DNA from: Candidatus Omnitrophota bacterium
GTDB lineage: Bacteria; Omnitrophota; Omnitrophia; Omnitrophales; JACQLI01
Assembly (NCBI GenBank): GCA_016179745.1
Contig: JACPCP010000012.1
Span: forward strand, 789 to 64,788
Length of the DNA: 64,000 nt
Reading direction: 5' to 3'
Part shown: piece by piece, positions 374-19,500 of the stretch
How the letters are laid out: each line of letters begins with the position of its first letter
Position numbering within the stretch: position 1 is the first letter of the stretch
Position numbers and translations under genes: made by a program
The notes under the pieces: model-generated
What the model saw: the letters and a program-made list of their open reading frames with translations, nothing else
The model's database searches: none
Told to the model about the DNA's origin: nothing

Positions 374-374
374 C

Positions 375-611
375 CTAGCCACAATTCACCTTTGGAAATC
401 GAAGCCTTTTCCTTAAATCTGATCTCGAGATCATCAAGTCATTCCTGTCTCTAAGCCGATGTAAGGCAATCCGGCAATCGTCATCTTCAACCAGATAGAA
501 AAGAAGGGCTTTTTCGGCTAAAGCTGAAAGAGATGTCCTCTGTTTCAAGGCAATTTTCTTCAAGCGACTATGGAGCTTCCTATCAAGATGAACAGTGACC
601 CTTGCTGTCAT
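375..611 (-). CDS. ribbon-helix-helix (CopG/antitoxin-like) DNA-binding protein
   Basis: ORF track, 78 aa. The N-terminus VTVHLDRKLHSRLKKIALKQRTSLSALAEKALLFYL fits an RHH strand plus two helices. Its ATG overlaps the upstream toxin stop in ATGA (608..611). Confidence 0.5.
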   Translation of the reverse strand: MTARVTVHLDRKLHSRLKKIALKQRTSLSALAEKALLFYLVEDDDCRIALHRLRDRNDLMISRSDLRKRLRFPKVNCG

Positions 612-931
612 TGGGGAAGGGCTAGGGCAAACTTGAGTGCGTCTTCAACGGCTTGGAGTTTTCCATTTGAAAGAGTTGTAACCCGCTCTGTCAGTAATTT
701 TTTCGGAACCGTATTAATCACATCCAAATTAACCACACATTTCTTCGGCATCCCGTCTTCAGGGCCAAGGGGAACTTCCACGGGAATATTCCGAATCCTA
801 CTCGTCACCTCAGCTACCGTAACGGCGTCTCTGACCTGAACAGCCCGGTGCCGGGAAAGAATGACCACGGGATGTCGACCAATGGGCCTTGGTAAAGCAG
901 CCCACCAAACTTCTCCTCGTTCCATCACCAC
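608..931 (-). CDS. mazF: MazF/PemK-family mRNA interferase toxin
   Basis: ORF track, 107 aa. The sequence RGEVWWAALPRPIGRHPVVILSRH...VTVAEVTSRIRNIPVEVPL...KKCVVNLDVINTVPKKLL matches the PemK/MazF pattern (RGdiw..f.P..G.E...RPvvVls...vvvp.Ts......p.ev.l). It overlaps the upstream RHH gene by 7 nt. Confidence 0.75.
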   Translation of the reverse strand: MVMERGEVWWAALPRPIGRHPVVILSRHRAVQVRDAVTVAEVTSRIRNIPVEVPLGPEDGMPKKCVVNLDVINTVPKKLLTERVTTLSNGKLQAVEDALKFALALPQ

Positions 932-1182
932 TTCTCCCGTGTAAAGCTCACCAATCCTGCCCGGAACATTGGCTCAATGTCGGCAACACGCTCCGGTTTT
1001 CTTTGGTACCCCTTCACGTAACGCTCTTCAAGCTCCTCTTCTTCCTGTTTTTTAAGCCAAAGCTTCAATGCCTCATCGACGGCAACGCTTCGGGCAAGGC
1101 CAAGCGTATGCCTCCGGCGCTCCACACCCGCAAAAGTGCCTCTTGGCACGCTCACCGCAAATCGAGCCCTTCGTGGTTGCAT
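925..1182 (-). CDS. RHH antitoxin, MazE-like partner of the MazF-family toxin
   Basis: The ORF track lists 925..1191 with a GTG start. ATG at 1182..1180 is the likelier start because GGAGGTG lies 6 nt upstream. FAVSVPRGTFAGVERRRHTLGLARSVAVDEALKLWL is RHH-like. The acidic/aromatic C-terminal tail is typical of toxin-binding regions. Confidence 0.6.
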   Translation of the reverse strand: MQPRRARFAVSVPRGTFAGVERRRHTLGLARSVAVDEALKLWLKKQEEEELEERYVKGYQRKPERVADIEPMFRAGLVSFTREKW

Positions 1183-1218
1183 AGCTTTCACCTCCTCGTA
1201 ATACTCCAGTCTGAAAAA

Positions 1219-1247
1219 AGTATGTCTGATAGTATGCCTAAAGTCAA
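1219..1247 (-). promoter_or_regulatory. putative sigma70-type promoter of the RHH-mazF-RHH operon
   Basis: Minus strand reads TTGACT (1247..1242), a 17-nt spacer, then CATACT (1224..1219). It lies in the 62-nt gap between the stop at 1254 and the antitoxin gene. Confidence 0.4.
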
Positions 1248-1253
1248 GCTTGC

Positions 1254-3746
1254 TTACGCCGCCGATTCAAGGGAGCGGAATTCGGCGCTGAACTGGGCCA
1301 GAAGGGCCTGGTCGGCGGGCAGACTAAGAAGCTCGTTAAATTCGGCGGGCGGCTTGAGGGGATGACTTCCAAATCCGATGAACTGAATCTGAGCTTCCGG
1401 AATTCCCTTCCTTAATAAGGCAAACTCGGCCTGTTTCCGGCTGTCATAAGCCAGGAGCCGGAAAGCTCCAAGCTTCAGTGCACGATTCAACTTCTCAACG
1501 GTTTCACGCTGAACGTCCCTCTCCTCGGACTCGCCTTCGGTCACGACAGCCACCTGGAAGGAATCGCCGTATTGCTTCTTCAATAATCCAAAAAGCGGCC
1601 CCCATTTCTCAAACGCCGCCGCCTTCACAATCATCGCCCGCTTCGCATCTGCGGTCGAGGGAATCCCAGTAGCAAAGGGGACTGTCCCCTGCTTTTCTCC
1701 GGCGGAGGGGACTGTCCCCTTTGCTGCAAAAATTGATCTCCCGGAAACGGCTCTCTCCGCTTCCACAAGCGCCTCTTGCCACGCCCCCGCCTCCGGTGCC
1801 TCCCTCGCCACTGCATCGGGAATCCCGAACCGTTTAATGAAATCACGGCTGAAAATTCCGCCCAGGATCTGCAAGGCTACCCGGACTTCACTTCGATAAT
1901 TTACTCCTTGCGGATCACTTTCGCCTTCCAGCCGATCAGCAGTGAGGTGTCCGAGACTCATAAAGATTGTAAAGCTTGTGCCTTGACCCAAAGTACTATC
2001 AACCTTAATTTGACCGTCATACCCTTCAACATTTTTCTTAACTATACCCAGGCCTTCTCCCGTGCCCTTTATTCCCAACGGCTTTTTGGAAAAGTCCAGG
2101 CGCCAAATGTTTGGAAGGTCCTCCGGTGCAATCCCGTGGCCGGTATCCGAAATACGGATAAAATCACGTTCTCCCTGTCTTCCTGTTTCAATCGTAAGTT
2201 CTTTTCTCTCGCTCTCCTTCATTGCGTGAAGAGCGTTGTTAAAGAGGTTCGTCAACACTTGGATGAATATCTCTTTGTTCATTCCTGACGAAATCGGCTT
2301 GTTGGATCGGCTAACTTTTGCTGTCAAAATCAGGTTCTGCAGATCGACCCCGGCATCTTTCACTGCTATCACCGCCATAAACAAACTTTCCTGAAGAATG
2401 TTGACAAGCCGAGGATCAACTCTGCCCCAGTTGACTTCGGCAAACGTTCTGGTTTTCTTTCTAAGAATTTTATATCCAACACGAGGTTGGTTATTTCCTT
2501 CTTTGCTCCGCACCTCGGCGCGGCGGGCCTTATTGAGGTGTTGACGTATATGTATATTTGATTTATTATTCAGCATATGTTTAAGTTTTCGCCAAAGCAA
2601 CGTGAGAATACGACGAAGGTGGTCGTCAATCTGATCACCGTGGATGCCGCGACGCTTCTGGCTGGGAACCTCTTCAGCCAGAAGGGGTTTCATTTGCTCA
2701 TCTTCATCACGGGATGTATACTCCTTTTGCTTTTTTACCTTTGGGTGCTCTGGCTTGAGCCGGAATGAGGAGAAATGAGATGACGTTACAAGGGCAATGG
2801 ATGGCGATGGGTTCTCTGGTTTTCCTCGCTGCAGTAATAGGTTGCTTTGTACTTCTTGACTGGTTGAGCCGCCGACCCAAGCATTCCCACCACTAATCCT
2901 TCTTTCCATCCGCCGCACCTCGGCGCGGGACGAATCCGGTTTGCCAGTCCCCTCCAACTTTTTGCTCACCGCCGTCTTCTTTTCCTCGATGATCCCGTTC
3001 AATATTTGCGGGACACCCTCCAGCCTATGAGCTGTAACGCCGTAACCTTGAGCGATATGATGTCGTGCAAAGCTCTGTCCTTCTTCATACCATCCTTGCC
3101 CCTTCGCCAGGCGTATTGCTTCCTCCCCCATCAATCGCATGTCTCCCATCTGCTCAATCTCTCTCGCCTTGACTTTCCCAGAAATATCAGCCCTTGCTTT
3201 CAGTGCTTGCTCGACTTTCAGCAAAATTTGTAGTTCAAGCTGAGCAAAACGATCTCTTACAATTTTCTCGGCGATCTCCGGCTTTTCGCTGATAAAAGGA
3301 AGCAACAACAAAAGAAGGACCCCTTTTAGATCTGACTCCAGATTGAGATCGTTGATCACATCCGCCATCGCAAGAAGTTCTGAAACCTTTTCGTAGCGTG
3401 TCTCGTCAACCAAATGAACATGCTCTTCCGGCGTCCCTTTCCGCAACGGGAAATTCTCAATAAGCCACGCAAGGGCCGTCCCAAAATCGGTGAATTCCAA
3501 CCTCAGCTGATCCTGGGCCAGCGCCGTCGTAAGCAGCACCGTCAACTGGGCCAACATTCCCTGCTCTAAATCGCTTCGAATCGTTCCTGAATAGTTTGAA
3601 AACGCATCTTTCAGACTAAATGTCTCCGATCCCCTTTCTTTCCCTTCACTCCGCACCTCGGCGCGGCGGCCAGGGCTGGGTCGTTTGGCTAAAGCCTGCA
3701 CTTTGCCCAATAGCTGAAGTGAGAGGATGTGCGTTTCACGAAACAA
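1254..3746 (-). CDS. 830-aa multi-module protein (four punctuation motifs, HATPase_c module, conserved ...LESAA C-terminal module)
   Basis: ORF track (TTG start). The frame is actually open upstream to 3848. It has four in-frame R[SA]EVR copies. Its terminal module is paralogous to the end of ORF 4562..20122. Confidence 0.7.
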   Translation of the reverse strand: MFRETHILSLQLLGKVQALAKRPSPGRRAEVRSEGKERGSETFSLKDAFSNYSGTIRSDLEQGMLAQLTVLLTTALAQDQLRLEFTDFGTALAWLIENFPLRKGTPEEHVHLVDETRYEKVSELLAMADVINDLNLESDLKGVLLLLLLPFISEKPEIAEKIVRDRFAQLELQILLKVEQALKARADISGKVKAREIEQMGDMRLMGEEAIRLAKGQGWYEEGQSFARHHIAQGYGVTAHRLEGVPQILNGIIEEKKTAVSKKLEGTGKPDSSRAEVRRMERRISGGNAWVGGSTSQEVQSNLLLQRGKPENPSPSIALVTSSHFSSFRLKPEHPKVKKQKEYTSRDEDEQMKPLLAEEVPSQKRRGIHGDQIDDHLRRILTLLWRKLKHMLNNKSNIHIRQHLNKARRAEVRSKEGNNQPRVGYKILRKKTRTFAEVNWGRVDPRLVNILQESLFMAVIAVKDAGVDLQNLILTAKVSRSNKPISSGMNKEIFIQVLTNLFNNALHAMKESERKELTIETGRQGERDFIRISDTGHGIAPEDLPNIWRLDFSKKPLGIKGTGEGLGIVKKNVEGYDGQIKVDSTLGQGTSFTIFMSLGHLTADRLEGESDPQGVNYRSEVRVALQILGGIFSRDFIKRFGIPDAVAREAPEAGAWQEALVEAERAVSGRSIFAAKGTVPSAGEKQGTVPFATGIPSTADAKRAMIVKAAAFEKWGPLFGLLKKQYGDSFQVAVVTEGESEERDVQRETVEKLNRALKLGAFRLLAYDSRKQAEFALLRKGIPEAQIQFIGFGSHPLKPPAEFNELLSLPADQALLAQFSAEFRSLESAA
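1677..1689. repeat. GGGGAC-T-GTCCCC palindrome, copy a
   Basis: The sequence is ggggactgtcccc, with left arm extended (gcaaaggggac). It is read as K-G-T-V-P in the minus ORF. Confidence 0.85.
1707..1719. repeat. GGGGAC-T-GTCCCC palindrome, copy b
   Basis: The sequence is ggggactgtcccc, with right arm extended (gtcccctttgc). It lies 30 nt from copy a and is read as Q-G-T-V-P. Confidence 0.85.
1881..1895 (-). repeat. punctuation motif copy, peptide RSEVR, codon-diverged
   Basis: The + strand reads ccggacttcacttcg, which is cga agt gaa gtc cgg on the minus strand. It is in frame. Context NYRSEVRVAL. Confidence 0.8.
1950..2435 (-). other. HATPase_c (GHKL histidine-kinase-type ATPase) module without recognisable HisKA/H-box
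   Basis: N-box LTNLFNNALHA, G1 ISDTGHGI (D codon checked at 2147) and G2 GTGEGLGI are present. No phospho-acceptor His box is seen upstream within the module. Confidence 0.7.
2508..2522 (-). repeat. punctuation motif copy, RAEVR, canonical DNA
   Basis: The + strand reads ccgcacctcggcgcg(g). It is in frame. Context ARRAEVRSKE. Confidence 0.9.
2541..2569 (+). promoter_or_regulatory. putative +-strand promoter (cassette 3)
   Basis: TTGACG (2541..2546), a 17-nt AT-rich spacer, then TATTAT (2564..2569). It starts 18 nt after motif copy 2508. This is an AT-rich island in otherwise GC-rich DNA. Confidence 0.4.
2577..2768 (+). CDS. small (63 aa) hydrophobic-tailed protein, possibly leaderless, antisense to the 830-aa ORF
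   Basis: ORF track. The ATG lies 7 nt after the -10 box. The C-terminal HLLIFITGCILLLLFYLWVLWL looks like a TM helix. There is no homology support. Confidence 0.3.
   Translation: MFKFSPKQRENTTKVVVNLITVDAATLLAGNLFSQKGFHLLIFITGCILLLLFYLWVLWLEPE
2913..2927 (-). repeat. punctuation motif copy, RAEVR, canonical DNA
   Basis: The + strand reads ccgcacctcggcgcg(g). It is in frame. Context SSRAEVRRME. Confidence 0.9.
3651..3665 (-). repeat. punctuation motif copy, RAEVR, canonical DNA
   Basis: The + strand reads ccgcacctcggcgcg(g). The 20-mer tccgcacctcggcgcggcgg is identical to the one at 2507. Context GRRAEVRSEG. Confidence 0.9.
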
Positions 3747-4498
3747 CGTAATCTGCTTATCATAGGACTCAGACCATCTTCTCTCATTTCCGTTGGAAAA
3801 ACCATTTGAAGCGCTAAGTCCCTTGTGATGCCTGCCAATTTTTTCAGTTTATCCTTGAGAGAAACCATATCGGGCCTAAGATCCCTTTGTAACTCTTCTC
3901 TTGTTGCCTTCCGTCCGTCCATCCCTTCCTTAAAAGATTTACCAATCAAATCGACTACTCTTGTAATCTCTCTTTCCCATGCCTCTGCCATCAGCCGCTG
4001 ACGGATAATCCGCTCGCCCTGAGTCTTCAATTCCCTTCCGACCCTGAGACCCTTCCTCTCAGAAGATGAAGTTAATGTTTCTACCTGGCCGGCGGCTTCT
4101 TTGTGGGTCCTCTGCAAGAGTTTCCTCAGGAAACTCTGAACTTTTCTTTGAGAGCCACTCCGCACCTCGGCGCGGGAAAGGGAATTTTCCGGAATATTGG
4201 GAGATGCGCTTTTATCATCAAAAAGTATTTTATTTTTTATATTGACAGGGCCCCTTCTCCCCGTTAGAATCTCCCACGTTATGGATGATAATTTCACGCC
4301 CAGGGAAGTCGCAGTACTGGTGGAGGAACTCTGCAGTGAGTTTCGGACCGTTTCAGAAGTCGTGCGGCCGTTAAGGGAGGATATGGCCGATGTCAAAGAA
4401 CGGCTTACGACTCTTGAATTCAAAGTCCAATCGCTTGACGATGCGGTTCGCCTCTCAATCCCCGGCTTGAACAAGCGCGTTTCCCGCCTCGAAGTCAA
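3689..4498 (-). CDS. 269-aa open frame in phase with ORF 4562..20122 (continuation after a single TAA); N-terminal ~110 aa are the antisense image of the + gene 4281..4511
   Basis: ORF track (TTG start). It has the same codon phase as the 5,186-aa ORF and contains motif copy 4160. The part after the motif (SGSQRKVQSFLRKLL...) has normal composition. The part before it is Ser-rich low complexity. Confidence 0.3.
   Translation of the reverse strand: MTSRRETRLFKPGIERRTASSSDWTLNSRVVSRSLTSAISSLNGRTTSETVRNSLQSSSTSTATSLGVKLSSITWEILTGRRGPVNIKNKILFDDKSASPNIPENSLSRAEVRSGSQRKVQSFLRKLLQRTHKEAAGQVETLTSSSERKGLRVGRELKTQGERIIRQRLMAEAWEREITRVVDLIGKSFKEGMDGRKATREELQRDLRPDMVSLKDKLKKLAGITRDLALQMVFPTEMREDGLSPMISRLRCFVKRTSSHFSYWAKCRL
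4160..4174 (-). repeat. punctuation motif copy, RAEVR, canonical DNA
   Basis: The + strand reads ccgcacctcggcgcg(g). It is in frame. Context LSRAEVRSGS. Confidence 0.9.
4242..4270 (+). promoter_or_regulatory. +-strand sigma70-type promoter (cassette 1) with AT-rich upstream block
   Basis: TTGACA (4242..4247), a 17-nt spacer, then TAGAAT (4265..4270). The upstream block ttttatcatcaaaaagtattttattttttata matches the block at 12610..12641 at 32 of 38 positions. Confidence 0.65.
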
Positions 4499-4511
4499 AG
4501 CCGGGATCTGA
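4281..4511 (+). CDS. small (76 aa) coiled-coil protein, paralogue of 12714..13154; near-leaderless
   Basis: The ATG lies 10 nt after the -10 box. MDDNFTPREVAVLVEELCSEFRTVSEVV...LEFKVQSLDDAV aligns with MDAYTVTEVGTLLEEIRTDVKRIAEG... of the second cassette. It is convergent with the end of ORF 4562..20122. Confidence 0.55.
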   Translation: MDDNFTPREVAVLVEELCSEFRTVSEVVRPLREDMADVKERLTTLEFKVQSLDDAVRLSIPGLNKRVSRLEVKAGI

Positions 4512-4537
4512 CTTTCGTCGAACCTCTGACCTGTCCC

Positions 4538-4567
4538 CTTACGCTTCCTTACGCCGAAGTCTTACGC
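4538..4567 (-). repeat. three copies of GCGTAAG (minus strand) placing TAA in all three phases
   Basis: The + strand has cttacgc at 4538, 4548 and 4561. On the minus strand TAA falls at 4564 (phase of ORF2), 4551 and 4541, so the three stops are in three different phases within 26 nt. Confidence 0.8.
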
Positions 4568-7500
4568 CGCCGTTTCGAGGGCACGGTAGAGTTCGGCGTA
4601 GCGCTCAAGGGCGCCGGCAAGGACCTCTGAATAATAGGAAAGGTAAGCCTGGGTTTCCCGCTGGACCCTCTGCCAATCGAGATCCTGAATGATCCGCTTG
4701 AGAAGCGCTTGGTCCCCTTCAAGCCCAAGGGCCTCGATTCGGCTGAAATTTCGCAGGCGCACCGCTACTGAAGGTCCTTCGAGCACAAGAATCTGAGACC
4801 CCTCCAGTGCCTGGCTCAATTCAATCGCCACCTTTCGGGCCACGTCCGCCTCCGCTCGATCTTCCGGCGCCACCACAAAAATCTCCGGCAAAGGGGACTG
4901 TCCCCTTTGCTGCCCGAGTGCCACGAGGAACGCCCCCGCCTTTGCAAACATCTCGGGTCCGACCACAAACGCAGTCTTCGCACCCGTCTGTCGTATCGTC
5001 ATTGCGAGGAATCCCGTCGTCACCTCACGAGCAATCGTCCTAAACGCCCCCGCCTCCGGCCCCTCCGCCGCCACCGCTTCCGGAACTACGAAGAGCTCGG
5101 GGAATTTTACAAGATCTTCGGGCCGATAAATTCTCCCAAGCAGCCTCTCTGCCACACGGCGCACTGTGTCAAAGCGAACTTCCGCCCTTTTTTCCGTTTC
5201 CTCGCTACCTCTCCTCTCTTCCTTTTCTTTCTTGGCGGATTCCTGTTGCTTTTCAAGAAAGGATAGTCCCTCGTTAACAAATTTCTTCACAGTTGTTCCA
5301 GTCCCCTTTGGTGAACGCCAAATGGGGAGCTCACGGAATTGCTCACCTGTAAGTGGAGTAAGACCTTTTTGCTTTCTTACACGATTCACGAAATTAAATA
5401 TGTCCACCGGGTTGTCAAATTGTACTTTTCCTTGTTTGTTAAAATGACGCAGGAGTCTTTCCCACGCATCCTTTTTCATTCTTCGTTCACGCTCCCTTTT
5501 TTTCGCCTCCGTCTTCATCCCCGCCCGAGTCTTCACATACTCAAGGTTATTGCTAATCCTTTGCCGCCGAAACCTAAGACGATCGCCCTGCCTTGTGGGC
5601 TGGTCTTGTTGCGCATCAATAATCTGTCGGAACAATTCTTTCTGAGTTCGTTTCTTTTCGTCATCTGTGCCCCGTACCTCGGCGCGCTGGACTGCCTCAT
5701 CTAACGGTAACCTCCCGACTTGGGTGGGTCTTCTTCCAACCATCAGAAGAATCATATTCCCCGACCTCCCCGGCAACCGCTTCGGGGAAATAACGGGGAC
5801 TAGTGACAGTTCCGTAAATCCGGCCCGTCTCCGTAACTTCCCTAGTATCGTCTCACCGATAACGTTCGGGCTGAAAATTTGAGCTGCCGCCTCGGGATAA
5901 ACGTAGTGGAACGCCAGCAGGTGATCCGTAAGACGGGAAGTATTCTTAGTCCGAATCAAATTTTGAATCTCCCCATAATATCTCGGCCATGCTTCGCTCC
6001 CCTCACCTTGAACTTGATTGGGGATCTTTTGCGCCAGAAGAAGAATAGTGCTGGGCTCGCCAATTTCCCCTGTCATCTCCTCAATCACCGGATAATGCTT
6101 CCCCACTTCTTCGTAGGCGTGCCCCATGACTCCTTGGCCACCCCAAAGGGCGTCCACAGAAACCTGAAGATCGGTGATTTTCCGATCCTTCTTATTCAGG
6201 TTGGCGAAAAAATAGGCCACCGCTTCTTTCTTCTCAACCCCTGAACCGGACAAATGAAAAATTTCGACCCAGAGAATTGCTTGCGATTCATTGGTTTGAA
6301 GTCTCCGGATCTGAAATTGTTTCGTCGGCAACTCCTTGAATTCAAATTTAAAGTCTGGGAGCTCTTTTGCGACAAACTGGAACCGTTCTCCCTTCTTTGA
6401 ACTCCATTCGCTTTTGAAGACCGAAGTCGGCCCTTCCCTATTCACTAAGATCCCAAGCGCCTCGGGAGCATAAACCGTGTATGCTTGCGCCCGCACCTCG
6501 GCGCGGGAGGAAGAAGGTCTGAAAAATTTACGGTCGAGGATGCGGCGGCTGCCGTACATCCAGGTGCTGAGAAAAGCGCGGATCAGGCCCCAGCGGCGGG
6601 CGCGATCAAAATAAATTTCACGGCCGCCGACGTGAATGGCGTAATTTTTTTTCGGGACGCCGAAGTAGTCCAAGGCCGCTTCGAGTTCTGCGATCCTTTT
6701 GACACCGTCCGTCGTTCCCTCATCCCGCCCGTCCGAGGCCCCGAAAAAGACAAATTTGTCCACGCCGTTCTTCTTAAAATACTCAATGAGTCGATACAAC
6801 TGCTGCATCGAGGCGTGCACCCCGACGATCCCTTCCTGAAAAATCCCCGTCATCGGCATAAAACCGAGCCTCTTGGCAGCTTTTAAGGCACTCTGAATCG
6901 CCGGACTCCGGGATAACTCCCCGCCTTCGAAGGCCTCATCCGCAAGCACGATGTATTGGTCCACGATACGGCCGGCCCCGAAGGTCCAGAGGTTGAATTC
7001 CGTGCTTCCTTTCTGAACCGGGCTAAAATGCCGCACGACGGCCTTTCCCCGCCTGACTTCCAGATTGACGTGGCGATCGTTTAGATACGGACTTCGTCGC
7101 AGCCTCAGAAGTCCCTCCGGACGCCGGTCGACCCGCCGCTTACCGGTATCCTGATCGATGAAAACAATTTCTCGCAGGCTGCGATCCCGTTCGATTTGCC
7201 GCGTGACAATTCTCCGGCTTCTTGAGAGGGGGTACTGGGGATTTAAGTCCAGCCGGCCGCGAAGACCGGCCGGCCGTCCCGCTGCCGGCACCGTGACGTT
7301 GGGGGCTTCTTGAAGGAGACGCTGAAGCGTCGGCAGGAGGCCCGCGTCCAAGGCCTGCTGGGTGAGGTTAAACGCCGGATCATTTCCCTTTTCACCCTTC
7401 GGCGCAAATCCGTCCGTAATGAGAAAAACGCCCGGCCGGTCTCGCCGTCCCTGAACCCCATCCGGCAGAAAACTTTCTCCCGTCATTGCCTCTGGAATCT

Positions 7501-10500
7501 TAATTCCCAAAAGATGGAGGAGCGCCGGTGCGGCGTCGGCCTGCGTACCCGGGCGATCTTTGAGGGAAATTTTTCTGAAACCGCCACCCCCTTTGACATA
7601 ATCCAGGATCATGAAAGGGACATCCGAGGCGCTGTGCCCCGGCGTGTCTGCCCCATCAAGCCCCCCGTGGTCCGAAATGGCGACCAGGGCCGCACCGGTT
7701 TCCTGGGCCGCCCCGGTCACGATTTTTACGCCGCGATCCAAGGCCCTCAATGTCTCAATGCCGGAATCCCTGCCGGTCCCCTTTTTCGAAACGAGCCGGG
7801 TGACGGTAATTTCCCGTGCCGCAAAGTCCACGGCAAAAAAAACTTTCTCCCGTGCAGGATCGAAATCGGGAAACCGATTCTGAACTCCCAAGGCCGCAAT
7901 CATTTCTCCGGCCCCGACAAAGACTTCTACGCTGTTCGATGCATTCGCCTCTTGTAAAATATCAAATTGAATGTCAAAACCCGCATCCCCCCGTCGAACT
8001 CCCTTAAGTCGGCCGGTCCGCCCGAGTTCTCGAATGCGTTTCGTAAATTCCCGGCCCATAAAAACTTGATCCTCAAATTCATCATCCTGGACCCACAAGG
8101 TCGCCGATTCATCAAGATGCTGGCTCGCCACGTGGCTATTGAGGTCGGCCATGTCCAGATTGCTAATGACATCCCCGTCAGGGCCTGCCCTTTTGATAAG
8201 GTTCGCGTCCGCACGAGCTACGAAATACATACTTCCGCCGGGATAATGCCACAGATCTTTGTTCGGAAGCTGATTGTAGACTTCAGCCTCCGCAAAGGTT
8301 CCGTCTTTCGTTTTCACTTTCACGGTTTGGCGGATTCGGGGCATGGATATGCTTCCATAATCGAGGTTTTCGTGTCGGTAAGGCTTGTCTCGGCCGCGGA
8401 AGGTCTCGATAAAACCGGTTTTCTCACTCCCAAAACCCCAAAAGACTTTCCTCCCGTGCTTCCCCAGCCATTCGACCAGGCCATGACGCACGATGATATC
8501 CGGGATAACGGCTCTCCTGCTCGCCATTAACTCCTTCACATAACGGGTCATCCCGTAAATCGGCATCCCGCGCACATCCGTCGTGTCTTCATAGGCAAAT
8601 TGATTATCCCGGACGGCCCGGACCCACAATTTCTGCCGGTCTTTTCTATGATTCCAGCCGAATAGAAAGCGTCTCTTCCGAGCCTGCGGCGCCAAAATGC
8701 CAACCGGTCCAAACTCATCAATCTGCATGATGGACCGCATCGTCTCGTCAAAATGACCTGCCTTATATTCCCGGGCCATTATTTTCTTTAACTGATCCGT
8801 CGACCACACATACACAACGCCGTCGGCCAACGAATCAATGGGGACCCTCTTTCTCTTGATCTCCTCCCAGAGGGAGGGCGCTTCTTCTTTTAAGACCAGA
8901 GGGTGGTTGCTCAGGCCCTGTTGGTTTCTTGCCTCAAGCGCACGACGGCCCACAAGGCCGAGGCTCGCGGGGCCACGGATCGGCTTTTTACGGACTTCGG
9001 CGCGCTGAGGCCAGCCGTGCTTCCCGATCAGCTCCACGAACTGGACGGGCCCCAAGTTATCGTAAGACGCCCCATCGTCGGGAGTTAAGCCCCCCCGATT
9101 GAGGCCGGCCAGAATTTTCTGGACCGCCGGAAGAACAGGCTTTTCGATTTCAAACTCAGTAAAGAATATTTTCGGGGAACTTGCGTTGACCTTGGGTTCC
9201 AGAATCAAACGGACCTTCGTATTCCCAAACTGTTTTTCCGGCGTTTCGCTCCGCACCTCGGCGCGGGAGGGCGGCCGGCCCCTCCTTAACCGCCCCATCT
9301 CAACCTCACCACGGGAGATGCGGCGGCCATCCCGCCCGGCACTTTTGGAAATGGTACCGATCCGGGTACGCGGCCCCGCAAGAGCTCTGCGGGCCTCGGA
9401 GCGGAAGAAAGAAGGATCCGTTCGATCCCCAGGAAAGTTCTGTTCACTCCAGCTATCAGCAGAAGCGTCTATCACTGAAATTGCCGACCCACGGGGCATT
9501 CCTTGGGGTTCCAGATAAACGGAGCCGTCCGGTTCGACACGGTCAATTCGAAACGAAAAATCCAAGTCACCAGGCTCGCCGCCCAGTAAAAATCGGATGG
9601 ACTCATTGGACCCTACGGTCAGGTTCAGGTGAGTAGACCAATCCTGGGTCGGATCGATTGCCTGCAAAAGGGAGGGCACATCAGCCTTTTTAAAATGATC
9701 CTCGTGGGCAATTTTAACCACCCGAGGCGCATGAATCCGCACCTGAGTCAAAGCTCTTCCACCTCGACTCCTTCGTCTTTCTCTGGGTTGTATCCAAATT
9801 TTCCTCCGAGTGCCGTTGACGATCAGACCGCTGATTTCAAGTTCTTGGCCCTGCGCAACCCTGAAGATCTGCCTAAGCGCTGCGGCCGGTAACTGGGGTA
9901 AAAGCTCTATTTGAGGGTCCGTCCTTCTCAATAAAAGTCCTGGTCTGACATTAGGGGCCGGTCCTTCTGAGAGCGAAATCAAAACCCTTCTCCTGGGATT
10001 CTCTGGATCGCTCACGACCCATTCCTTCCCGGCATCCAATGGCAAGCTCTGTTCCTTCGAAGCTTCCAAGGGCGGAGCGTCCGCCCCTTTCTCATAAACC
10101 GTCACACCCCCCTGAATCATGAAGAAGTTTTGATCAAGATTATCTCCGACACGAACCGCCGCTCTGGACCCTGACGGAAAATGGATTTGGACAGTGCCGA
10201 AGTCTCCGTTTGCTTCTGCCGGATTCCACACAAACATTTCGTTGAATTCCTCTCCGCTCCGCACTTCGGAGCGGAGGGTGTCGGCGGCGGCAAAGGCACG
10301 CCCTTCCTCGAGACGCTCGACCAGAGCTTTGAAGTCGGTAAATTTCGTCTTCTGCGCCACAAGGGTATTTAAACCGAGCGCCTTGACTCCTGACAGAGTC
10401 AACTCAAAGTAACGGAGAGAGTTTGAATCTCCTGGATGTTGTTCCACTTCACGAACCCAGCCCTCTCCTATTTGATCCGGAGAGCCGGTGTGCAGGAGGA

Positions 10501-13500
10501 TCGGGGCCTGAACGCCCTCTGCTCTGAGCGCTTCGATCAAGTCACGGCCATTTAATCCAGGAAGTCCGTTATCAATAACCAAAAGGTCAATTTCCTTATC
10601 AACTCGTTTGTCTAAAAGAGACCGAAGAGCCGCTTCTCCGTCTCCAAATTCCGTAATCTTCTTCCCTTTGAAATGTGCCTTTAGAGTCTCCCTCATGCCT
10701 TCATCATCCTCGACAATAACCACGTTCTGAATCTTCCGCCCTCCCCTCAAGAGCCGGATTTGATTCGGCGCCAGCGTGAGCTCCGCCCGATTTGTTTCCT
10801 GCCGCACTTCCACTCGAGCGCCGGTCAGTTTGATGCGAAACCCGTCTGGGATCTCGATCGTGACCGTCCGGCCCGGTTCGCCGCCGAGATGGCGGATCAA
10901 GGGCTCCGAGACGAAGACCTCGATCGCATTTTCCGTTTTGGAATAGCCGAAGCCCGTAACGGCCGGAAATAACGGCGCCTCACCCACTCTTTCAATCTTG
11001 CTCAGAAGAGTCCCTTCCAGAATGACTGACTGGCCGGGCCGGTGGACAAACCTGAACAGGCTCTCCGCCCCCTTGACAGCTTCCAGCACGAAATTCAACG
11101 GATCGGCAGACCGAACATAGGTTGATCCAAAATCGTGTTCCCCGGATTTGCTGGTGCTCAGGGCCTCATGGACTTCCCAGGGAAAATGTTGAAATGTGAC
11201 CTTTGCCTCTCCAAATTGAGCGGCCGCCTGAACTGCGCTCTCCGGAACAAAGGATTCGGCTTCCTCTACGATAAAAGCATTCTTTACCAGGACGTTGTAG
11301 ATGAAGTCCCTGGACCGTGTTCCGCTCTTCCCTTCTCCGCTCCGCACCTCGGAGCGGGCCTCGTCACGACGGTGAAGCTGAGGTAAGCCCGAGAGAGAAG
11401 TGGGCTGGCTCGCTGCGGCTTGAGTCGATTTTTCCATCTTTTTCAGACGCTGATAATGCTGCTCTCGGACTTGCCAAACAGTAAGCCCTTGCTTCGAATC
11501 CAGAGGTTTTCTTAAGCGTTCGGCTTCCTGCCTTCTTAGCCGATCGAGGTCAAAACCCAGGCTCGTCCGAACCAGGTCAAGCTTGCTTAGGTCACGAACG
11601 GGTGTGTCTCCAGGCGATTGGACCCAAACATTACCAAACGGGTGGGAATGAGCGTAAATTTCGCTGCCCGTCTGGGGCACCAGAGATTGACCGAGGGCAA
11701 GAAAAGGCAGACTCTCCACCGCAATCACAATGCCCTGTTCATCCGGCTGCAAGACTTTGGCTGATTCGACGAATCCCAGTCGTGACGCAAGCTCCTGGGC
11801 TTCCTCCCTCATGGAACCATCCTTTTGTCCGTCCCGAGGTTTTCCCAGAAAAAAGTCTCCCTGATGTAAGAGAAATACCGGTCTCCATGCGAAATAGGGC
11901 TTGAAGCGGCCGACTTGACGGGGGTGGGGGGAATAAATCAAGGCGAGCTCGTAATTCCGGCTGATTGCATCCTCCAAGTTTTTAAACCCCTTGAACGGAT
12001 GGAAAAAGTGAATCCGGGGTTCTTGAGGCGAATCCCGTGAAATGACGCCCGAACTGTAGGGTCTTGCCCTTTTTTTAATTTCGTTAAAGAACAAGGGGTA
12101 GGCTTCTTTTTTCGTGAGAAGGATCAAGCTGATGGCGTAGGCGTAAAGGTTCATCGAACGCCCCGTCTCGGCATGCCCATAAAGATTGACGAGGAACTTC
12201 AGGGACTCTTCCGTCCCGTAACGGTCGACCCACTGCATCAATAATTGATCAAGCGTCTGCTGGATCTTTTGAGGCTGCTTTTTGACCTGTCTTAACCTGA
12301 GCAGCCGCTTCTGCTCACGGTTCAGCTCTAAGAAATGCTCTTGAGCCGGCAGGCCGTTTGGGTTGAATTCTCCTTCTTCACCAATGAGATCCTTCACAGT
12401 TTGAATCTCTCTTTCAATTTCCCCCAAATTCGCCGGATGATCCCGGTAATCAATAAATTCCTGGACATCGCCAAGCCAGCTAAAGAACGGTTGTGTGCTC
12501 ACCCGCACCTCGGCCCCCGGCTCGGACGGAGCCGGGGACGGAGGAGTGCTCGCCTGAGCGGGCGAGCGCACCTCGGAGCGGGCTGGCTGGCGCTTATCAA
12601 AATATGTATTTTTATCATCAGAAGATATTCCATTTTCTATATTGACAAACTCGCCGGCCGGCGCTACACTCCCTCCCCCTGTTTTAAAGAACTCATTCAC
12701 CAGGAGAATTGCGATGAAAAGAGAAAAACCAGTGAAGCCAGCTAAAAAGATGGATGCATACACGGTCACAGAAGTCGGAACGCTGCTTGAAGAGATCAGG
12801 ACCGACGTCAAGAGAATCGCTGAGGGCCACTCGGGACTTGATAAGAGATTAGAGGATATTGAAGTCTCAAACCACGGGATCCAAGATCGTCTCCAAATGG
12901 TGGAACTCAGCAACTCAATCATTAAAGGCAAAGTCTCCAGACTTGAGGATGCTACTTCAAAACTGTTGAAGGATCTCAAAGACACCCGCCTGGAACTTAA
13001 GGCCGACATCGCCCAGACAAAGGTTGAATTGAGAAACGAAATGGCTGAGATGAGGGTTGAACTCAAAGCAGAAATTGTGGGTTCCAAGACCGAGCTCAAG
13101 AATGAGATCAAAGAACTCGGCGGCCGGTTGAGCGCTGTCGAAAACCCACGCTGAGTTTTTACTCTGCGCACCTCGGAGCGGGAGAGGGAGGCGTAAAGAT
13201 CCCGGGCGCGGGAGAGGGTGTCCGGAGTAAAATTGGCGCCGGTCAAGACAATGGCGATTCTCCTGTCCCGAAGAAGAGGCCTATACTCTTCTTTTGACAT
13301 CAGAAAATAAACCACGGCCAGCGAGGCGGCGGCCGAGGGTTCAACTTTATACCCTGCCTGATTGAGATCAACGAACGCCCTGATCAGCAAGTCTTCGGGG
13401 AATTCCACAAATTCGAAAAGTTTCGATCCGAAGGCTTGAAGCGTCTCTACCGCAAGCTTCTGCGCCATTTGGATCGCAAGCCCGTCGGCCATCGAAGCAT

Positions 13501-16500
13501 CTCGAAGCATCGGAACGGCGCCGATGACCTTGGTCTTGCCGCCGTGAGCATGGGAATCGAGGGTCATTCCCACGAGCGGCCCTCCCCCGCCGGAAGGCAT
13601 CACCAGATAATCCGGATCGCCGATCGCCTCCCGAATGTCCTCCAGAATGCTCGCTCCGCCCAAAGCCATACTCTCCCCATTGGAAGCATAGACGTGAAGC
13701 ATCCCTTTCTCCTTCGCATACGCCTCCAAAACGACAAGAAGCTCATTGATATTGACGAGCCGATGCTTGATCTTGTCTTCGCTCTCCCCCGGATCGAGCA
13801 CTCCCGCCACCTGAGCGTTAAGGATAAAATCATCCAAATAAACGATTTCCACCAAATCGACCGTTGGCACACGCTTAAAATTCCTCCAAAGGTAATAAGG
13901 TTTCTCAAACTTGCGGATCTTCTTTTTCTTGGTCTCATTGAGGAAGGTGTAGGCCACCATCGTCACCTTAAAATCGGGCGGGAGTTTCCAGAGCGTGCCG
14001 TCTTTCAGAACGATCCCGTGTTTTTTCAGGTAACGCACCGTGTAGAGGAGCCCCTGAATGGCATTGCCGGAGGAATAGATTACCGCTTCTTTCAATTTTC
14101 CGGAATCGATCGCTTCCCGGTTTTCAATGAGGAGGTTGACATACTGACGCCACTTGAAAGATCCCACCGGCGACAAATATTCCCGGGCGGCGAACAGTTC
14201 GAAGCGAACGCCTGTCCGCTCTATGAATTCCCGAACAGCGGGGAGATGGGTAAGGGAAACGATCTTTGGTTTGAAAAGGCGCCGAATCAGATAGAAAATC
14301 CGGCCGAAGAAGCTGGTTTTTGCACGGATGAGCTGACGCACAAACTCTGTTCCCCGTTTGAGCCGTTCAAGGGGGAATTGATTTAAGAAGGCATTTCTTT
14401 TTGTGAGATCCCCTTCGGGCGCGGCCTCGGGAACTTTCCCTTCCGGACTTCCATTCCGTCGCCACGTGGCGTGGTAAAGCCGGAGGTATTTTTTCACAAG
14501 CAAAAGGGGACTGTCCCCTTTTTTGGGGACTGTCCCCTTTTTGTTGGGTGGGCTCTTATTCGGGCTGAACCGCTCGATATCTTCCAGGGCCGGCATAAAA
14601 TCGATTCCTTCCAGCCGTCCCAGTACACTGGCGTAATCTTTGAGCTCTGAAATCCCCTTTGAGGCTTGGATCTTTTGAAGAAGGCCCCTTTTTGCGGAAA
14701 GATTTCTCAAGTGTCTGATGAATCCCCTGTTGCCTTGGAAAAGATCGAGAACTTTGTTCACAACCCGGGCACGCTCCCGAAGCCCTGCCTGGTCTCTTCC
14801 GTCCGGCTCTGAAAGTCCCCGCCCTTTAAGTGCCTTAATCACAAAATTGGAAATGATTGTGAAATCCGGAGGGTTGGTCCCATTGACGCTTTCCCTCGCC
14901 GCAGACATCAAATCATCGGGCGCCAGCACTTCTATCATCTCCTGATAAATCTCCTCCGCCAGCTCATTGCCCCTGAGCTCGGAGCGGCGGGGGGAGGAGA
15001 TGGATTTCCGGAGAAAGGGTTCGCCATTGATCCAGAGTTCCAGCGAATCGGCCGGCGTTTCCGGCTTGAATAAATGCCGGCCTTCCGGGGTGACAAAGTA
15101 GAAGGTTACAGAACGGCGGTCGCCGTGGAGGGGCTGCGCCGCCAGAAGATAACCGGACTCCTGCAGAATCTTCCGGACTGATCGCAAAGCGATTTTTTTC
15201 TCTTCCGGTAACCGGGCAGCGTCAAGATACTGTTCGAATTGCTGCTCCAGAATCCCTTGAAGAGTCATCTGGGAAGGCATGCTCCGAGGACGATCCAGCC
15301 CGGAGGGGTCCACCTCCGCCACCAGGGGGAACTTCAATTTTGATTCCGGAAAATCCAGATGAAGGACCGGGAAATCTTCAATGACCGGGAAGGCTTCATC
15401 TTCTTTCGGGCTTCTCATCCGGAGAATCACTGTGTCTTCCGGAATTAAATTTCTCCTTCTCCAATCCAAAATGCCGTGAGTGACCCCGATTTTTTTCGCT
15501 TGAGCCGACGGAGGCCCCGGCCTTTCGGACTCCCTGGAAAGATCCAAAAGACGGCCGAGCAGCCGGTCGATTCTCTCAGCCCCTTCCTTTGTAATAGAGG
15601 TGCGCCGCTCGCCGGCGCCCACAGGAAGCCTGAAAGTCCGGGTCTTTCTTCCTGTTTCTTTCACATGGCGCCTCTGCTCCCGGACTTTTTCGAGGGCTCC
15701 GTCCTTTTCAAAAAGCTGCAGAGCAAAAATGGCGGACAAAAACTGGCTCTCCAATTCAGCCAGCCTTTCCAGAGCGGGGCTGATCTGCCGCCACGTCTTC
15801 ACCACATTTCCGGCTTGGGCCTGCCACCTTTCGCTTAAACTTTGATATTGCTCTCTCCAGGGGGACTGGGCTTCTTCGCTGGGCGCTGACACAAACGCCT
15901 GATAGGCCGTCGCCAACTGCTTTGTGGTCCGGAAAGCGGACCCCTCCTGGTGCGCCAAGGCCACGGGTGTCAATTCATCGTGGAAAGTCACTCTTACTTC
16001 AGAGCGGACGAACTCCGGCGTTGACGGAGTCGAACTCTTGGGCGGTGCGCTTCTGGCGAGAAGCCGGCCCGTAAGATCAAAGAGATGGGTAATGTCTTCA
16101 GTCCCCTCCTGTCGAAAGATGATCCGCACGCCTCCGTCGTCCGGATCCACAAAAAAATCGAAATCCCCGTGGGTCTCAAGCTCATCCTGCTTGAGCCAAA
16201 CCATGGACCCATTGCCCGTGCTCTTCGGAATCAGGAGGGGGATCGGCTTTCCGTCTTCCGCCTGAAAGAGATGGAAGTGTCCCTTGGCGTCCACAACGAC
16301 CGCCACAGCCTCCCTCAGGTGGGACGGCGCACCGGAAGAGTTGGCAACCAGGTCGAAGAAAGGCCCCTCCGGATCGCCTCCGACTCTAAAAGAAAAGGAC
16401 GACCTTCCCAGAGGGACCATCTTCAGCGTCTTTCCGCCTGTTTCAAACAGGAAGAGCGTCAGATACCGTGTCGCCGGAAACTTCGGAGAAGAGACCATGA

Positions 16501-19500
16501 CAACGATAAGCTCGGGGGATCCCCTGCCGATCGTGGTGATTCTGCTCGTCACCTTTCGCCGGTTAAAAAACCGGCCGTCCCCCTCGAATTTGATTCCCTT
16601 GAGGGGCCCCAGGCTCTGACGGATCCCCTCTTTCGAAACTCCCTTCAAACTCAGCGCTTTTTCGAGGGTCCCCCAGGGATTCCACCAGCCGTTTCCCAGG
16701 GAGAAGGACTGGGCCGGAATGCTGACCCTTTTCAACGTCTGGCTTGAGCCCTTGGAGGAGGAAGCCCCGTAGATCTTGCCCAGGCGGACATTTTTAAATA
16801 CCACAGATTTCTTTTCAACGGCCAGCTCCCAAAGGTCCATCACCCGGCCGATCTCAGCCAGCCTCGCCGCTTCACTTTGCTTCATCGTAAACCCGGAAAC
16901 ATTCATGAGGTCGGTCACCGGAGACCCCGTTTCCAAAAACTTCCCGTGCTGGACCATCGCCTTCATTAACGCCCGGAGGTGGATTCGAATTTGTGCGTCA
17001 TGGTCCCAGAGATACAGCTTGTCAATGAGGGTCCTGCGGCCGTCCGGAGCGTCAGGAAATCGAATCAGCGCCGGTGCTACCAGCTGCTGCGGGGACTTGG
17101 CTTCCGGGTCCGCTACTTTAAAAGCGCTCCTGAGCAGGTCCGTGAAACTTTCCGGAGTCGGCCTTTCCACCTTTTCCGAGCGCACCTCGGAGCGTTCGGC
17201 CGGGGCCGTCTGCGCCGGAGAGGGAAAAATTTTTCCGCTCCAGACCTCATGATTTTCATTGGCGCCGCTCAAAAGGACCACAAAGGCGTCCATCCCCTCT
17301 TTCTCCCAGAAATCCCGAAAGACGGTCGGAGCGGCGGCCGTCACCCCGGCGGTGACTTCGTAACGGCGTTCCTCTCCTTGATTCAAACCTTTGAGATCCT
17401 TCGCAACTTCCCGGACTGCAGGAATTCCATATTTCACCTCATCCACCTTGACCACGTAATCAACCACGTCCCATGCAAGTTTCCATGGAATTTCGATCCG
17501 CTCCACGGCAATCCCCTTGGAGAGCGTTCCGGGCGGGATCGCCCGGGTCACCTCCCGGCCATTTCTCATCGCCTCATAAAAGCCGTCGATCCCGGGTGTC
17601 TGGACGCCGATGACCTTGACTTCCACGTCAAGGCCCGATTCCCGAATCTGGTCTTTCAGAATCTTGGCGCCTGCGACAAGGCCTCCCGCCCCGACCGGAA
17701 CGGCCACTCCGATCCGCTTTGCCGGCAGACTCCCATTCTCCGCCGCCCTGCGAATCTGGTTGAAGATTTCATCGAAGATCGTGGCATAACCGGTCACGAC
17801 TCCCGCAAAATGATTGACCCGGATCACTTTCCCTGGCTGGTCCTTTTTAAGCCGGGAGACGGCCTCTTTGGCTTTGTCATAGGTCTTGCGAATGAGAAGC
17901 TCAAACGTGATGCCCTGTTTTTTCAAGCGCTGCTGCGCCTGTCGAAAAATCTTGATCTTCTCCGGGCCGGTCGAATCCTCTCCCACGGCAACAACAAGCC
18001 TTGTTTTCTTCCTGTCAATCTTCCCGGCCTCTGCCAGTTTCTCAAACGCCAGAAGGAGGGCGTAACCGTGGTTGAAGGTCGTCTGCGTGGCGATGGCCTC
18101 GATTTGCCGGCCTCCCGTCTTTGCCCGTTCAATCTCCTGCAGAACGAAATTCAGAACGCCGAGGATCTTGAACGAATTCCCCGGATTGCGGGTGGCGTCA
18201 TAAAGGTAGACCGGCTTCCCCGCCGCAGCGCTGATCCTCCCGGCCCTCACCCATTCCGGGTATTGAATCTCCTCAAACCCCGAGTCCCGGATCCGCTTTT
18301 GGGCCAAACCGATCGCCTCGGAATCCAAGCCCGGGAAACGCTCCAACCGCTCTGGATTCTCATTCTTAAGGATGCCCCCGCCCACTTCCCGGAATGGCGT
18401 TAAATCGTTCCGTGCTTCAGAACGAATAACGGAAAATCCGCTTTTGAGAAACTCCCGGCGGGCTTCCTTGCGGCTCTGTTGAATGGGCCTGAAATCAACG
18501 CCGTGCCAGCGGTAATCACGATAGGCCACCGGCAGGGCGGCGGCGTCTTCAATCTGCGAAAAAGGGTAAGGGGAAACCGGTTTTCCCAGAAAGGCATTGA
18601 AGTAGCTCTCTCGAGACTCCACTTCACCCTCCCCCCCGGAAACGGTCTCATCGAACCGGGGAGAGACGAGCGCATAAGAGAATCCTTTTTGATGGAAGGT
18701 TTCTCTCAAACCGTCCGTGTGGAAACCGCCCGTAATGAGGATGACGGCCCGGGCGCCGTGGCGGCGGATTTCTCTTTCGACATTCTCCGCCATCCAACGC
18801 TCCCGCTCCTTCGCCCCTTCATAAAACCCGATGGCCTTCCGAAGAAAGGAGGAAAGCGCCCCGGGAAGCCGGACACGATCCAGTCTCTTCAGGCGGGGAT
18901 AATCCTTTGCGGTGATTTCCAATTCGAAGAGGCGCCGAAGGAACCGGTAATCGAAAAATTCCTTAAGATGCCGCTTTTCTTTCGCCGTTTTGGCGAGACG
19001 GAATGAAAGAAGCCGGCCCAGGCGGTCGAGCTCTTCGGAAAGCACGTCCGGCTTGATTTCATTCCGGAAGACGAGCCACTGGAGCCAGATCTTCAGATAA
19101 GGGTAGCGGTCAAAGACGAAGTTGAGAGGCAGCCGGTCAACGGCCCTCTCAAGAAGAAATCGGATGTCACCCTCTCCCTCCCCTCTCCCCCCAAGAAGAA
19201 GAATTTCCAGTTCCTGGAAAATGGATTTTGGAAGAAACCTCCGCACGTCGTTTAGAAAACGGCCGGAGTCCTTTCGGATCGCCCGGCGGTCGAGGCGCCT
19301 TTCGATTTTGAGGAGCCGGGCGAGGCGCACGAGGGCGGGCCATTCCTTCTGGGACGAGGCAGACTGGAGATTGAGCCCCAAAATTTGGCGGGAATTTTTA
19401 TGAAGCTCACGAAACCAGGCGTCCAGGCCCAGCGTCCGGCGCTCGAAGGCCTCCTGCCGCCTCAAAAATTCCCGGAGCGGCCTTGAAAAGCCCGCTTCAA

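Follow-up and report, generated by a model that had tools for sequence, protein, structure and literature searches.

Repetitive extragenic palindromic (REP) sequences and the HUH Y1 transposases paired with them (RAYTs) are usually lineage-specific, although RAYT-like enzymes disperse hairpin repeats of this type in many phyla; in the related IS200/IS605 insertion sequences subterminal hairpins are recognized by TnpA on the lagging-strand template. Palindromic elements are also found in Rickettsia, where the element RPE-1 measures approximately 100–150 bp. According to Di Nocera et al. (2013; PMC3733652), intragenic REPs that are read in frame are known in Opitutus terrae and Rickettsia, with dimers encoding 20–30 residues, and a GGGGWSAS motif is common to the repeats on either side of TIRYT genes, which resemble RAYTs but are longer; the TIRYT repeat families are only moderately abundant and occur in few genomes, and REPs are reported to influence termination and mRNA stability. 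Here we analyze a 64-kb stretch of DNA from a Candidatus Omnitrophota bacterium (the window) in which a palindrome with the core GGGGAC-W-GTCCCC, here GGGGACTGTCCCC, is present in five exact copies at three loci, all of them inside open reading frames (ORFs). We consider it likely that these palindromes are a REP- or terminal inverted repeat (TIR)-type hairpin repeat of a RAYT/TIRYT-like system which sits in frame inside very long genes and is read through.

An earlier note on this DNA had listed five copies in coding sequence, one of them extended to a perfect 11-1-11 palindrome, with tandem pairs spaced 19–30 nt apart and with translation in all three codon phases. Every one of these copies was recovered at exactly the same place (Table 1), whereas none of 100 dinucleotide-preserving shuffles of the window contained a match to GGGGACTGTCCCC. 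The centre base on the plus strand is T in all five cases, and the form on the sense (minus) strand is GGGGACAGTCCCC. No other palindrome with 6-nt arms recurs three times or more in the window, and allowing up to two mismatches added nine further matches, which is chance level (6.9 expected). The two pairs, doublet 1 and doublet 2, have measured spacings of 30 and 19 nt and consist of direct rather than inverted units with the same centre base. Three copies are read in the GTVP phase, one in the GQSP phase and one in the GDSP phase, in two minus-strand ORFs (translations AAKGTVPSAGEKQGTVPF, QQRGQSPLPE and NKKGTVPKKGDSPLL). Specifically, doublet 1 encodes AAKGTVPSAGEKQGTVPFA with both copies in the GTVP phase, the single copy at 4888..4910 encodes QQRGQSPLP(E) in the GQSP phase, and in doublet 2 a GTVP and a GDSP reading follow each other. 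ORFs span nearly the whole length of the window; all five copies lie within its first 14.5 kb (1–14537), and none is found in the 43.8-kb ORF at 20143–63924. The GC content is 0.48–0.56 over 1–16 kb and mostly 0.55–0.60 beyond, with a dip to 0.51–0.53 at 56–60 kb. The region of doublet 1, including the 1677/1707 pair, is 100% identical in the Logan contigs L120–L123, and because these are independent assemblies of several runs of one Sequence Read Archive series, the doublet is not an assembly artefact. An Rfam search of the whole window matched no family.

Judged by its sequence, the palindrome is a nucleotide-level repeat and neither a peptide motif nor an operator. One 13-mer is translated in three phases, both in the window and in the MiaB genes described below, and the 4893 and 1707 copies share 32 nt, GCAGCAAAGGGGACAGTCCCCTnnGCCGGAGA, that are read in different frames; this agrees with the proposal of the earlier note that the element acts at the level of DNA or RNA. 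The consensus A5-GGGGACWGTCCCC-T5 is free of stop codons in all six frames and is therefore readable in every phase, as K-G-T-V-P, R-G-Q-S-P or K-G-D-S-P-L (KKGTVPF, KRGQSPF or KGDSPLF when A is on the sense strand). One might argue that the peptides G-T-V-P, G-Q-S-P and G-D-S-P are themselves selected, given that each is small, contains proline and is suited to loops, and that the sense strand avoids the Cys and Leu readings. This would have to account, however, for three different peptides arising from one invariant 13-mer, for the lack of synonymous variation among the five window copies or among 12 exact copies in MiaB genes, and for the abundance of the 13-mer in intergenic DNA of other genomes; the R[SA]EVR motif of the window, by contrast, does vary synonymously. 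Selection at the protein level is thus the least credible of the explanations that we weighed. In the GTVP phase the central A or T is synonymous, and the sense strand nevertheless carries A in seven of seven copies from the window and MiaB (about five independent events), which favours an insertion-strand or RNA-level cause over amino acid selection alone. At the RNA level, the predicted folds have energies of −36.7 kcal/mol for doublet 1 (z −4.3), −21 for the single copy (z −4.0) and −30.9 for doublet 2 (z −5.8). A literature search for the exact 13-mer returned nothing relevant, the sole match concerning an unrelated human antisense oligonucleotide.

Table 1. Palindrome copies and host ORFs in the window, and Y1 genes with exact palindrome copies nearby in other genomes
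Feature	Source	Position	Strand	Description
Doublet 1	window	1672..1724	-	plus strand GCAAA-GGGGACTGTCCCC-(17 nt)-GGGGACTGTCCCC-TTTGC; palindromes 1677-1689 and 1707-1719
Single copy	window	4888..4910	-	perfect 11-1-11 palindrome GCAAAGGGGAC-T-GTCCCCTTTGC, 23 nt; core 4893-4905
Doublet 2	window	14502..14542	-	AAAA-GGGGACTGTCCCC-TTTTTT-GGGGACTGTCCCC-TTTTT; palindromes 14506-14518 and 14525-14537
Host ORF 1	window	1254..3746	-	830 aa, HATPase_c domain; C-terminal domain of ~208 aa carries doublet 1
Host ORF 2	window	4562..20122	-	5186 aa; PALP, Response_reg, iPGM_N; single copy in C-terminal domain, doublet 2 in inter-domain linker
Y1 gene, L006	Planctomycetota			exact copies on both sides, tens of nt to ~130 nt from ORF ends
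Y1 gene, L014	Nitrospira			exact copies on both sides, ~25 nt from ORF ends
Y1 gene, L089	Planctomycetota			exact copies on both sides; nearest overlap the 3' end of the ORF
Y1 gene, L057	Patescibacteria			one exact copy, 86 nt upstream

Three of the five copies had been noted to lie 330–460 nt before the stop codons of two ORFs, and the measured distances are 423 and 453 nt for host ORF 1 and 331 nt for host ORF 2. They cluster there because both ORFs end in a paralogous domain of approximately 200 amino acids (1257–1880 and 4565–5173, minus strand) which terminates in ALE[ST]AA; within the two paralogous domains, the palindromes sit at non-homologous positions. Neither domain matched a Pfam family, and a word-index protein search with the domain of the 830-aa ORF found no homologue. 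An exhaustive profile search with both paralogues retrieved 14 homologues among 1.84 billion representative proteins. In ten homologues whose sequences were read, the domain is always C-terminal, and the host proteins range from short to very long.

Alignment of this family revealed that doublet 1 is an insert of 16–17 codons that is missing from the two closest homologues, P0123 (locus L159) and P0124 (locus L158), which are 53% and 59% identical. In the DNA of both loci the flanking codons are present and no palindrome occurs anywhere, and the site is thus polymorphic for the insertion. The 4893 copy overlaps the conserved QKQYGxQ segment of the C-terminal domain, with a net gain of two codons. 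No homologue covers the site of doublet 2. Over 42 nt, doublet 2 itself has 97.6% identity with a doublet inside a MiaB gene of another Omnitrophota metagenome-assembled genome (MAG), locus L036, and this near identity, taken with the giant ORFs, suggests an Omnitrophota-like source for the window.

This MiaB gene holds six palindrome copies arranged as three doublets, and comparison with the solved MiaB of Bacteroides (PDB 7mjz; E 1e-75) identified all three doublets as extra segments at loop positions. GTVP, GQSP or GDSP peptides are found at the same three loop sites in 48 of the 120 closest MiaB homologues (61–83% identity), in frame combinations such as GQSPKSGDSP, GQSPSGTVP, GTVPKRRGQSP and GTVPFGDSP, and across the alignment the sites are filled, decayed (GESP, GQPP, RVPD) or empty. 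At the DNA level, three MiaB genes contain 12 exact copies in phases 0, 1 and 2, with A on the sense strand in all 12; the copies elsewhere are hence not confined to one phase. A doublet unit of about 47–49 nt is identical at different sites and in different phases within one MiaB gene. Likewise, the HypF protein of an Aminicenantaceae genome has an insert of 18 residues, GQSPFSRGEAKKGQSPFF, preceded by KR, relative to solved HypF (PDB 3vth). A search with a synthetic peptide made of concatenated insert translations gave six candidates and no match. The three MiaB loop sites also harbour other recurrent insert families (P0001–P0120, alignment columns 170–232, 255–385 and 440–505), among them GQCASLPEGDKVT, which is present at two of the sites, and peptides of the P-A-C-R-Q-A-G type, for which a GCCTGCCGGCAGGC palindrome would be a suitable source; this suggests that several hairpin families colonize the same MiaB loops. 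A regulatory element specific for MiaB was considered and rejected, as the motif is present also in HypF, in intergenic DNA and in the orphan proteins of the window.

A scan of one genome per species with the pattern AGGGGACNGTCCCCT yielded at least 119 loci in MAGs and isolates labelled as many phyla; the counts that follow refer to the matches listed. None of the loci fetched from these genomes is homologous to the window. Of 179 copies, 162 have A or T (W) in the centre, against a mean GC content of 0.60 (p 7e-46). Two or more copies are present in 38 of the 119 loci, two copies lie within 100 nt of each other in 29, and several MAGs contributed three to five separate loci (for example five in one Polyangiales MAG). 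In front of the core, A stands at position −2 in 74% and at −3 in 69% of the copies, and behind it T stands at +2 in 69% and at +3 in 56%; when 159 oriented copies are profiled, the flanks show nothing but an A-run before the core and a T-run after it. Inverted A/T doublets occur in other loci, including L016, L052, L072 and L024. A metagenome scan for the 23-mer GCAAAGGGGACNGTCCCCTTTGC, which has 22 specified bases, found 26 loci from several sample series in two GC groups (0.37–0.48 and 0.63–0.69), all 26 with a W centre; essentially no chance matches are expected, judging from the length of the pattern rather than from a calculation. In viral contigs the motif is rare, with three matches only to AAAGGGGACNGTCCCCTTT.

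Location within coding DNA was judged outside the window only where Pfam or PDB homology provided an anchor, since spurious long ORFs in high-GC DNA blur a test based on spanning ORFs. The motif is intergenic in the Omnitrophota loci L024 and L052, and in lower-GC gut and other metagenome contigs it is intergenic and part of longer composite repeats. Seven metagenome loci with a GC content of 0.37–0.48 (L129, L130, L132, L144, L146, L149 and L154) share an intergenic composite repeat of approximately 70 nt in which a second palindrome, CAGAATATTCTG, and the motif together form CAGAATATTCTGAAAAYGGARGGCAAAGGGGACAGTCCCCTTTGCAAAAGGGACAGTCCCC. Metabacillus bambusae (L067, 3900–4260) has a tandem array of units of approximately 57 nt, each with GGGACTGTCCCC, which is preceded by GTAG in several units; among the listed matches this array is the only place where GTAG stands next to the core. 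CRISPR repeats were rejected as an explanation, as the Metabacillus array repeats its whole 57-nt unit.

The same survey bears on the possibility that a dimeric transcription factor uses the palindrome as its operator. Symmetric binding of a dimer would fit the perfect 6-1-6 dyad and its W centre, and tandem pairs could allow cooperative binding. The five copies, however, lie between 330 nt and 10 kb inside ORFs and far from promoters, and elsewhere the motif is dispersed, multi-copy, often embedded in longer hairpins and found in the loops of housekeeping enzymes. No regulator gene recurs near the motif in the 119 loci, so that the co-occurring transcription factors that the earlier note had suggested looking for were not found; among recurring neighbours, a Y1 transposase gene alone shows a link to the motif. 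We therefore regard an operator as very improbable. Of the three candidates named in that note, the inserted palindromic element is supported by doublet 1 and by the MiaB and HypF inserts, the hairpin stands as a property of the sequence (−21 to −37 kcal/mol), and the operator is without support.

The link to Y1 transposases came from a Pfam Y1_Tnp gene located near MiaB in locus L155, with which all fetched loci were searched by tblastn. Homologues are present in four of the listed loci that had been fetched solely for the palindrome, and exact copies lie beside each of these genes (Table 1). The Y1 ORFs of 200–241 aa contain HUH motifs of the NHxHLL type and a YIExNP motif in their translations. 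Against the NCBIfam model REP_Tyr_transpos the proteins of the flanked loci score 65–82 bits (positions 3–146), far above their scores with IS200 models, and their only relative in the PDB is TnpA-REP of E. coli (4er8).

Compared with REP/REPIN–RAYT systems such as the E. coli REPs with TnpA-REP or the Pseudomonas REPINs, the element is similar in being a short, GC-rich hairpin repeat that is often doubled, with a strand bias consistent with single-strand processing; in other genomes it is multi-copy and dispersed, and only there is a homologous HUH Y1 gene bracketed by exact copies. The short palindromic stem-loop also corresponds, with one perfect palindrome of 23 nt (4888–4910) and otherwise 13-nt cores flanked by A- or T-runs in the window. 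It differs by the absence of a GTAG or CGTC tag, by one perfect 6-1-6 core that is common to MAGs labelled as many phyla, by the intragenic position of all window copies as opposed to predominantly extragenic REPs, and by Y1 proteins of approximately 200–240 aa that mostly score just under the NCBIfam RAYT cut-off. With IS200/IS605 elements it shares the HUH Y1 superfamily, the presumed recognition of single-stranded DNA hairpins and an orientation bias relative to GC skew; unlike these, the window hairpins enclose no transposase gene, the units comprise 13–53 nt without cargo, and the Y1 proteins match the RAYT model far better than any IS200 model.

TIRYT/TIRtron systems, as portrayed in PMC3733652, come close in several respects. 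GGGGACAG fits the GGGGWSAS motif; the Y1 genes are longer than classical RAYTs and have repeats at a short distance on their flanks, and the repeats occur as singles, dimers and clusters. By contrast, that paper does not describe TIRYT repeats colonizing coding DNA in frame. Such colonization is what the same source records for the intragenic REPs of Opitutus terrae and for RPE-1, RPE-4 and RPE-6 of Rickettsia, which are in-frame palindromic repeats within ORFs, whose singles and dimers encode roughly 10–30 extra residues and of which several can be inserted per gene at permissive sites of conserved enzymes (PMC3733652). The Rickettsia elements nevertheless belong to an unrelated sequence family, and here the units, at 13–53 nt, are much shorter than RPE-1 and the hosts are giant ORFs.

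A number of observations weigh against a RAYT/TIRYT-like origin. Within the 64-kb window there is no RAYT-like or other Y1 gene, and with only five copies seen, a high copy number in the source genome is no more than a possibility. No cleavage site, rule for target sites or transposition event was recognized. Most NCBIfam scores fall slightly short of the curated cut-off (80 bits), the flanks of the 159 oriented copies listed bear neither a GTAG nor a CGTC tag, and the doublets of the window are direct whereas classical REPINs are inverted. The RAYT-like gene of L155, a contig with palindromes in MiaB, is flanked by a different hairpin: in this locus, and in L156, the gene next to MiaB is bracketed by the inverted hairpin AAATAGGGACACATCCTATTT (5749–5763 and 6475–6489), which occurs at those two places only in 21 kb, while at a distance of 4 kb the MiaB gene has four exact copies of GGGGACAGTCCCC. 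Nor is the 4893 copy a clean insertion; it looks more like the product of gene conversion or of insertion with deletion. The sense-strand A bias could partly reflect protein-level selection against Cys and Leu. The central A lies more often on the G-rich strand (73 versus 42 among the listed copies, p 0.005), which fits strand-specific single-strand transposition, but this GC-skew test is crude, since the copies counted are not independent of each other and GC skew indicates the replication strand only noisily. Finally, enrichment across phyla was judged from internal features rather than against matched control palindromes.

Some of these points would speak for a spread of the repeat without any dedicated transposase, by gene conversion, template switching or replication slippage between copies, in which case the RAYT link would be irrelevant here. 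The lack of a Y1 gene within the window and the different hairpin around the gene of L155 are compatible with such a route, and the 4893 copy looks like a replacement tract, its 32 nt being shared with the 1707 copy. Conversion could explain this one copy but not the bracketed Y1 genes: in three unrelated loci fetched for the palindrome the Y1 gene is bracketed on both sides, and in a fourth it is accompanied on one side, which is hard to explain without a functional link. Identical doublet units of 47–49 nt at different sites and phases of one gene are as expected of transposed units, and the same core is present in MAGs labelled as many different phyla. We thus give a spread without a transposase only a slim chance.

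The hairpins might instead be selected functional elements of giant genes, that is internal (especially antisense) terminators, polymerase or ribosome pause sites, or mRNA-stability elements; this is compatible with an origin as a REP-like repeat. An A-run, a GC-rich hairpin and a T-run together have the anatomy of a bidirectional intrinsic terminator, intergenic copies in other genomes, such as those of L052 and L130, are often found after a stop codon, and a pattern scan marks the copies at 1676 and 14525 as terminator-like on the plus strand, which is antisense to the ORFs. Doublet 2 is followed on the sense strand by UUUUGCUUGUG, doublets at the second MiaB site are kept in many Omnitrophota orthologues, and effects of REPs on termination and mRNA stability have been reported (PMC3733652). 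By contrast, the U-tracts on the sense strand in the window are only 3–4 nt long, the copies lie inside ORFs, and one invariant stem sequence across phyla is not expected of terminators. Terminator-like matches are not enriched overall in the region (39 versus 29.7 ± 6.6 expected), the closest homologues of the window domain do without any palindrome, and no copy is present in the 43.8-kb ORF, the one that would need such a function most. The decay (GESP, GQPP, RVPD) or absence of the MiaB copies is the pattern of passengers rather than of conserved signals. A selected function is therefore unlikely to be what maintains the copies.

Returning to a RAYT/TIRYT-like hairpin repeat as the probable identity of the palindromes, we propose the following course of events. 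The core, usually with an A-run before and a T-run after it, would fold as single-stranded DNA or RNA into a hairpin of 9–11 bp with a three-base loop, and would be the cognate repeat of a RAYT/TIRYT-like clade of HUH Y1 transposases in the IS200/IS605 superfamily. By analogy with these enzymes, a transposase encoded elsewhere in the genome would recognize the single-stranded hairpin (e.g. AAAAAGGGGACAGTCCCCTTTTT) and may disperse single units or short doublets; mobility itself is inferred from REP/RAYT and IS200/IS605 systems. Copies would persist only where a whole number of codons is added in a tolerant linker or loop. They would survive only in frame because coding sequence, to a large part that of giant ORFs, makes up nearly all DNA in view. 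Most likely the copies are passengers that are translated, and effects of the hairpins on transcription or translation would be secondary.

Several further features of the window were noted. The adjacent giant ORFs 20143–63924 (14,593 aa) and 4562–20122 (5,186 aa), both on the minus strand, have domains of ordinary enzymes and signalling proteins embedded in them (PALP in three stretches, Response_reg and iPGM_N), a mix that looks like several fused proteins. Doublet 2 lies approximately 80 residues upstream of a presumed second PALP-like stretch of the 5186-aa ORF, a placement that rests on reading the translation because Pfam gave coordinates for the best PALP stretch only. At approximately 3764–3769 the window is 31 nt shorter than the Logan contig L120 (SRR12113429), in which the 830-aa and a 269-aa ORF form one ORF of 1085 aa; the window thus has a frameshifting deletion or an assembly variant at this place. 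The peptide R[SA]E[VA]R punctuates the minus-strand ORFs 20143–63924, 4562–20122, 3689–4498 and 1254–3746 at 35 sites and is present also in homologues from other samples (P0123 and P0125–P0127). Its DNA is mostly CGC[GT]CCGAGGTGCGG, with the synonymous variants CGAAGTGAAGTCCGG and CGTTCAGAGGTCCGG, and because the R[SA]EVR form varies synonymously it is constrained as a peptide, unlike the palindrome; a connection between the two was accordingly rejected. Positions 375–1191 (minus strand) hold a small cluster resembling toxin–antitoxin genes, with a PemK/MazF-like ORF at 608–931, a 78-aa ORF at 375–611 and an 88-aa ORF at 925–1191, and in the related locus L159 a MazE/PIN pair lies downstream of the long ORF.

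This analysis assigns an odd palindrome in coding DNA to a recognizable class, that of REP-like repeats with a link to a RAYT-like transposase, and such repeats can live inside genes, giant ones included, by being stop-free in every frame. For annotation, additional evidence is needed before an intra-ORF hairpin of this kind is called a terminator, an operator or a frameshift signal, and where proteins of these lineages contain short inserts reading G-T-V-P, G-Q-S-P or G-D-S-P, these are footprints of the repeat. It is tempting, if doubtful, to speculate that one 13-nt core and its RAYT-like clade form a single REP system across a dozen or more phyla, as the MAGs are labelled, and that it colonizes giant genes of the Omnitrophota type in frame, supplying linkers and loops and possibly internal hairpins (antisense terminators or pause sites) that would aid the expression or recombination of long genes. 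The presence of the core beside Y1 genes that are homologous between MAGs of Planctomycetota, Nitrospira and Patescibacteria, together with its heavy load on Omnitrophota MiaB, bears on the conservation of the pairing between REPs and their transposases across phyla.

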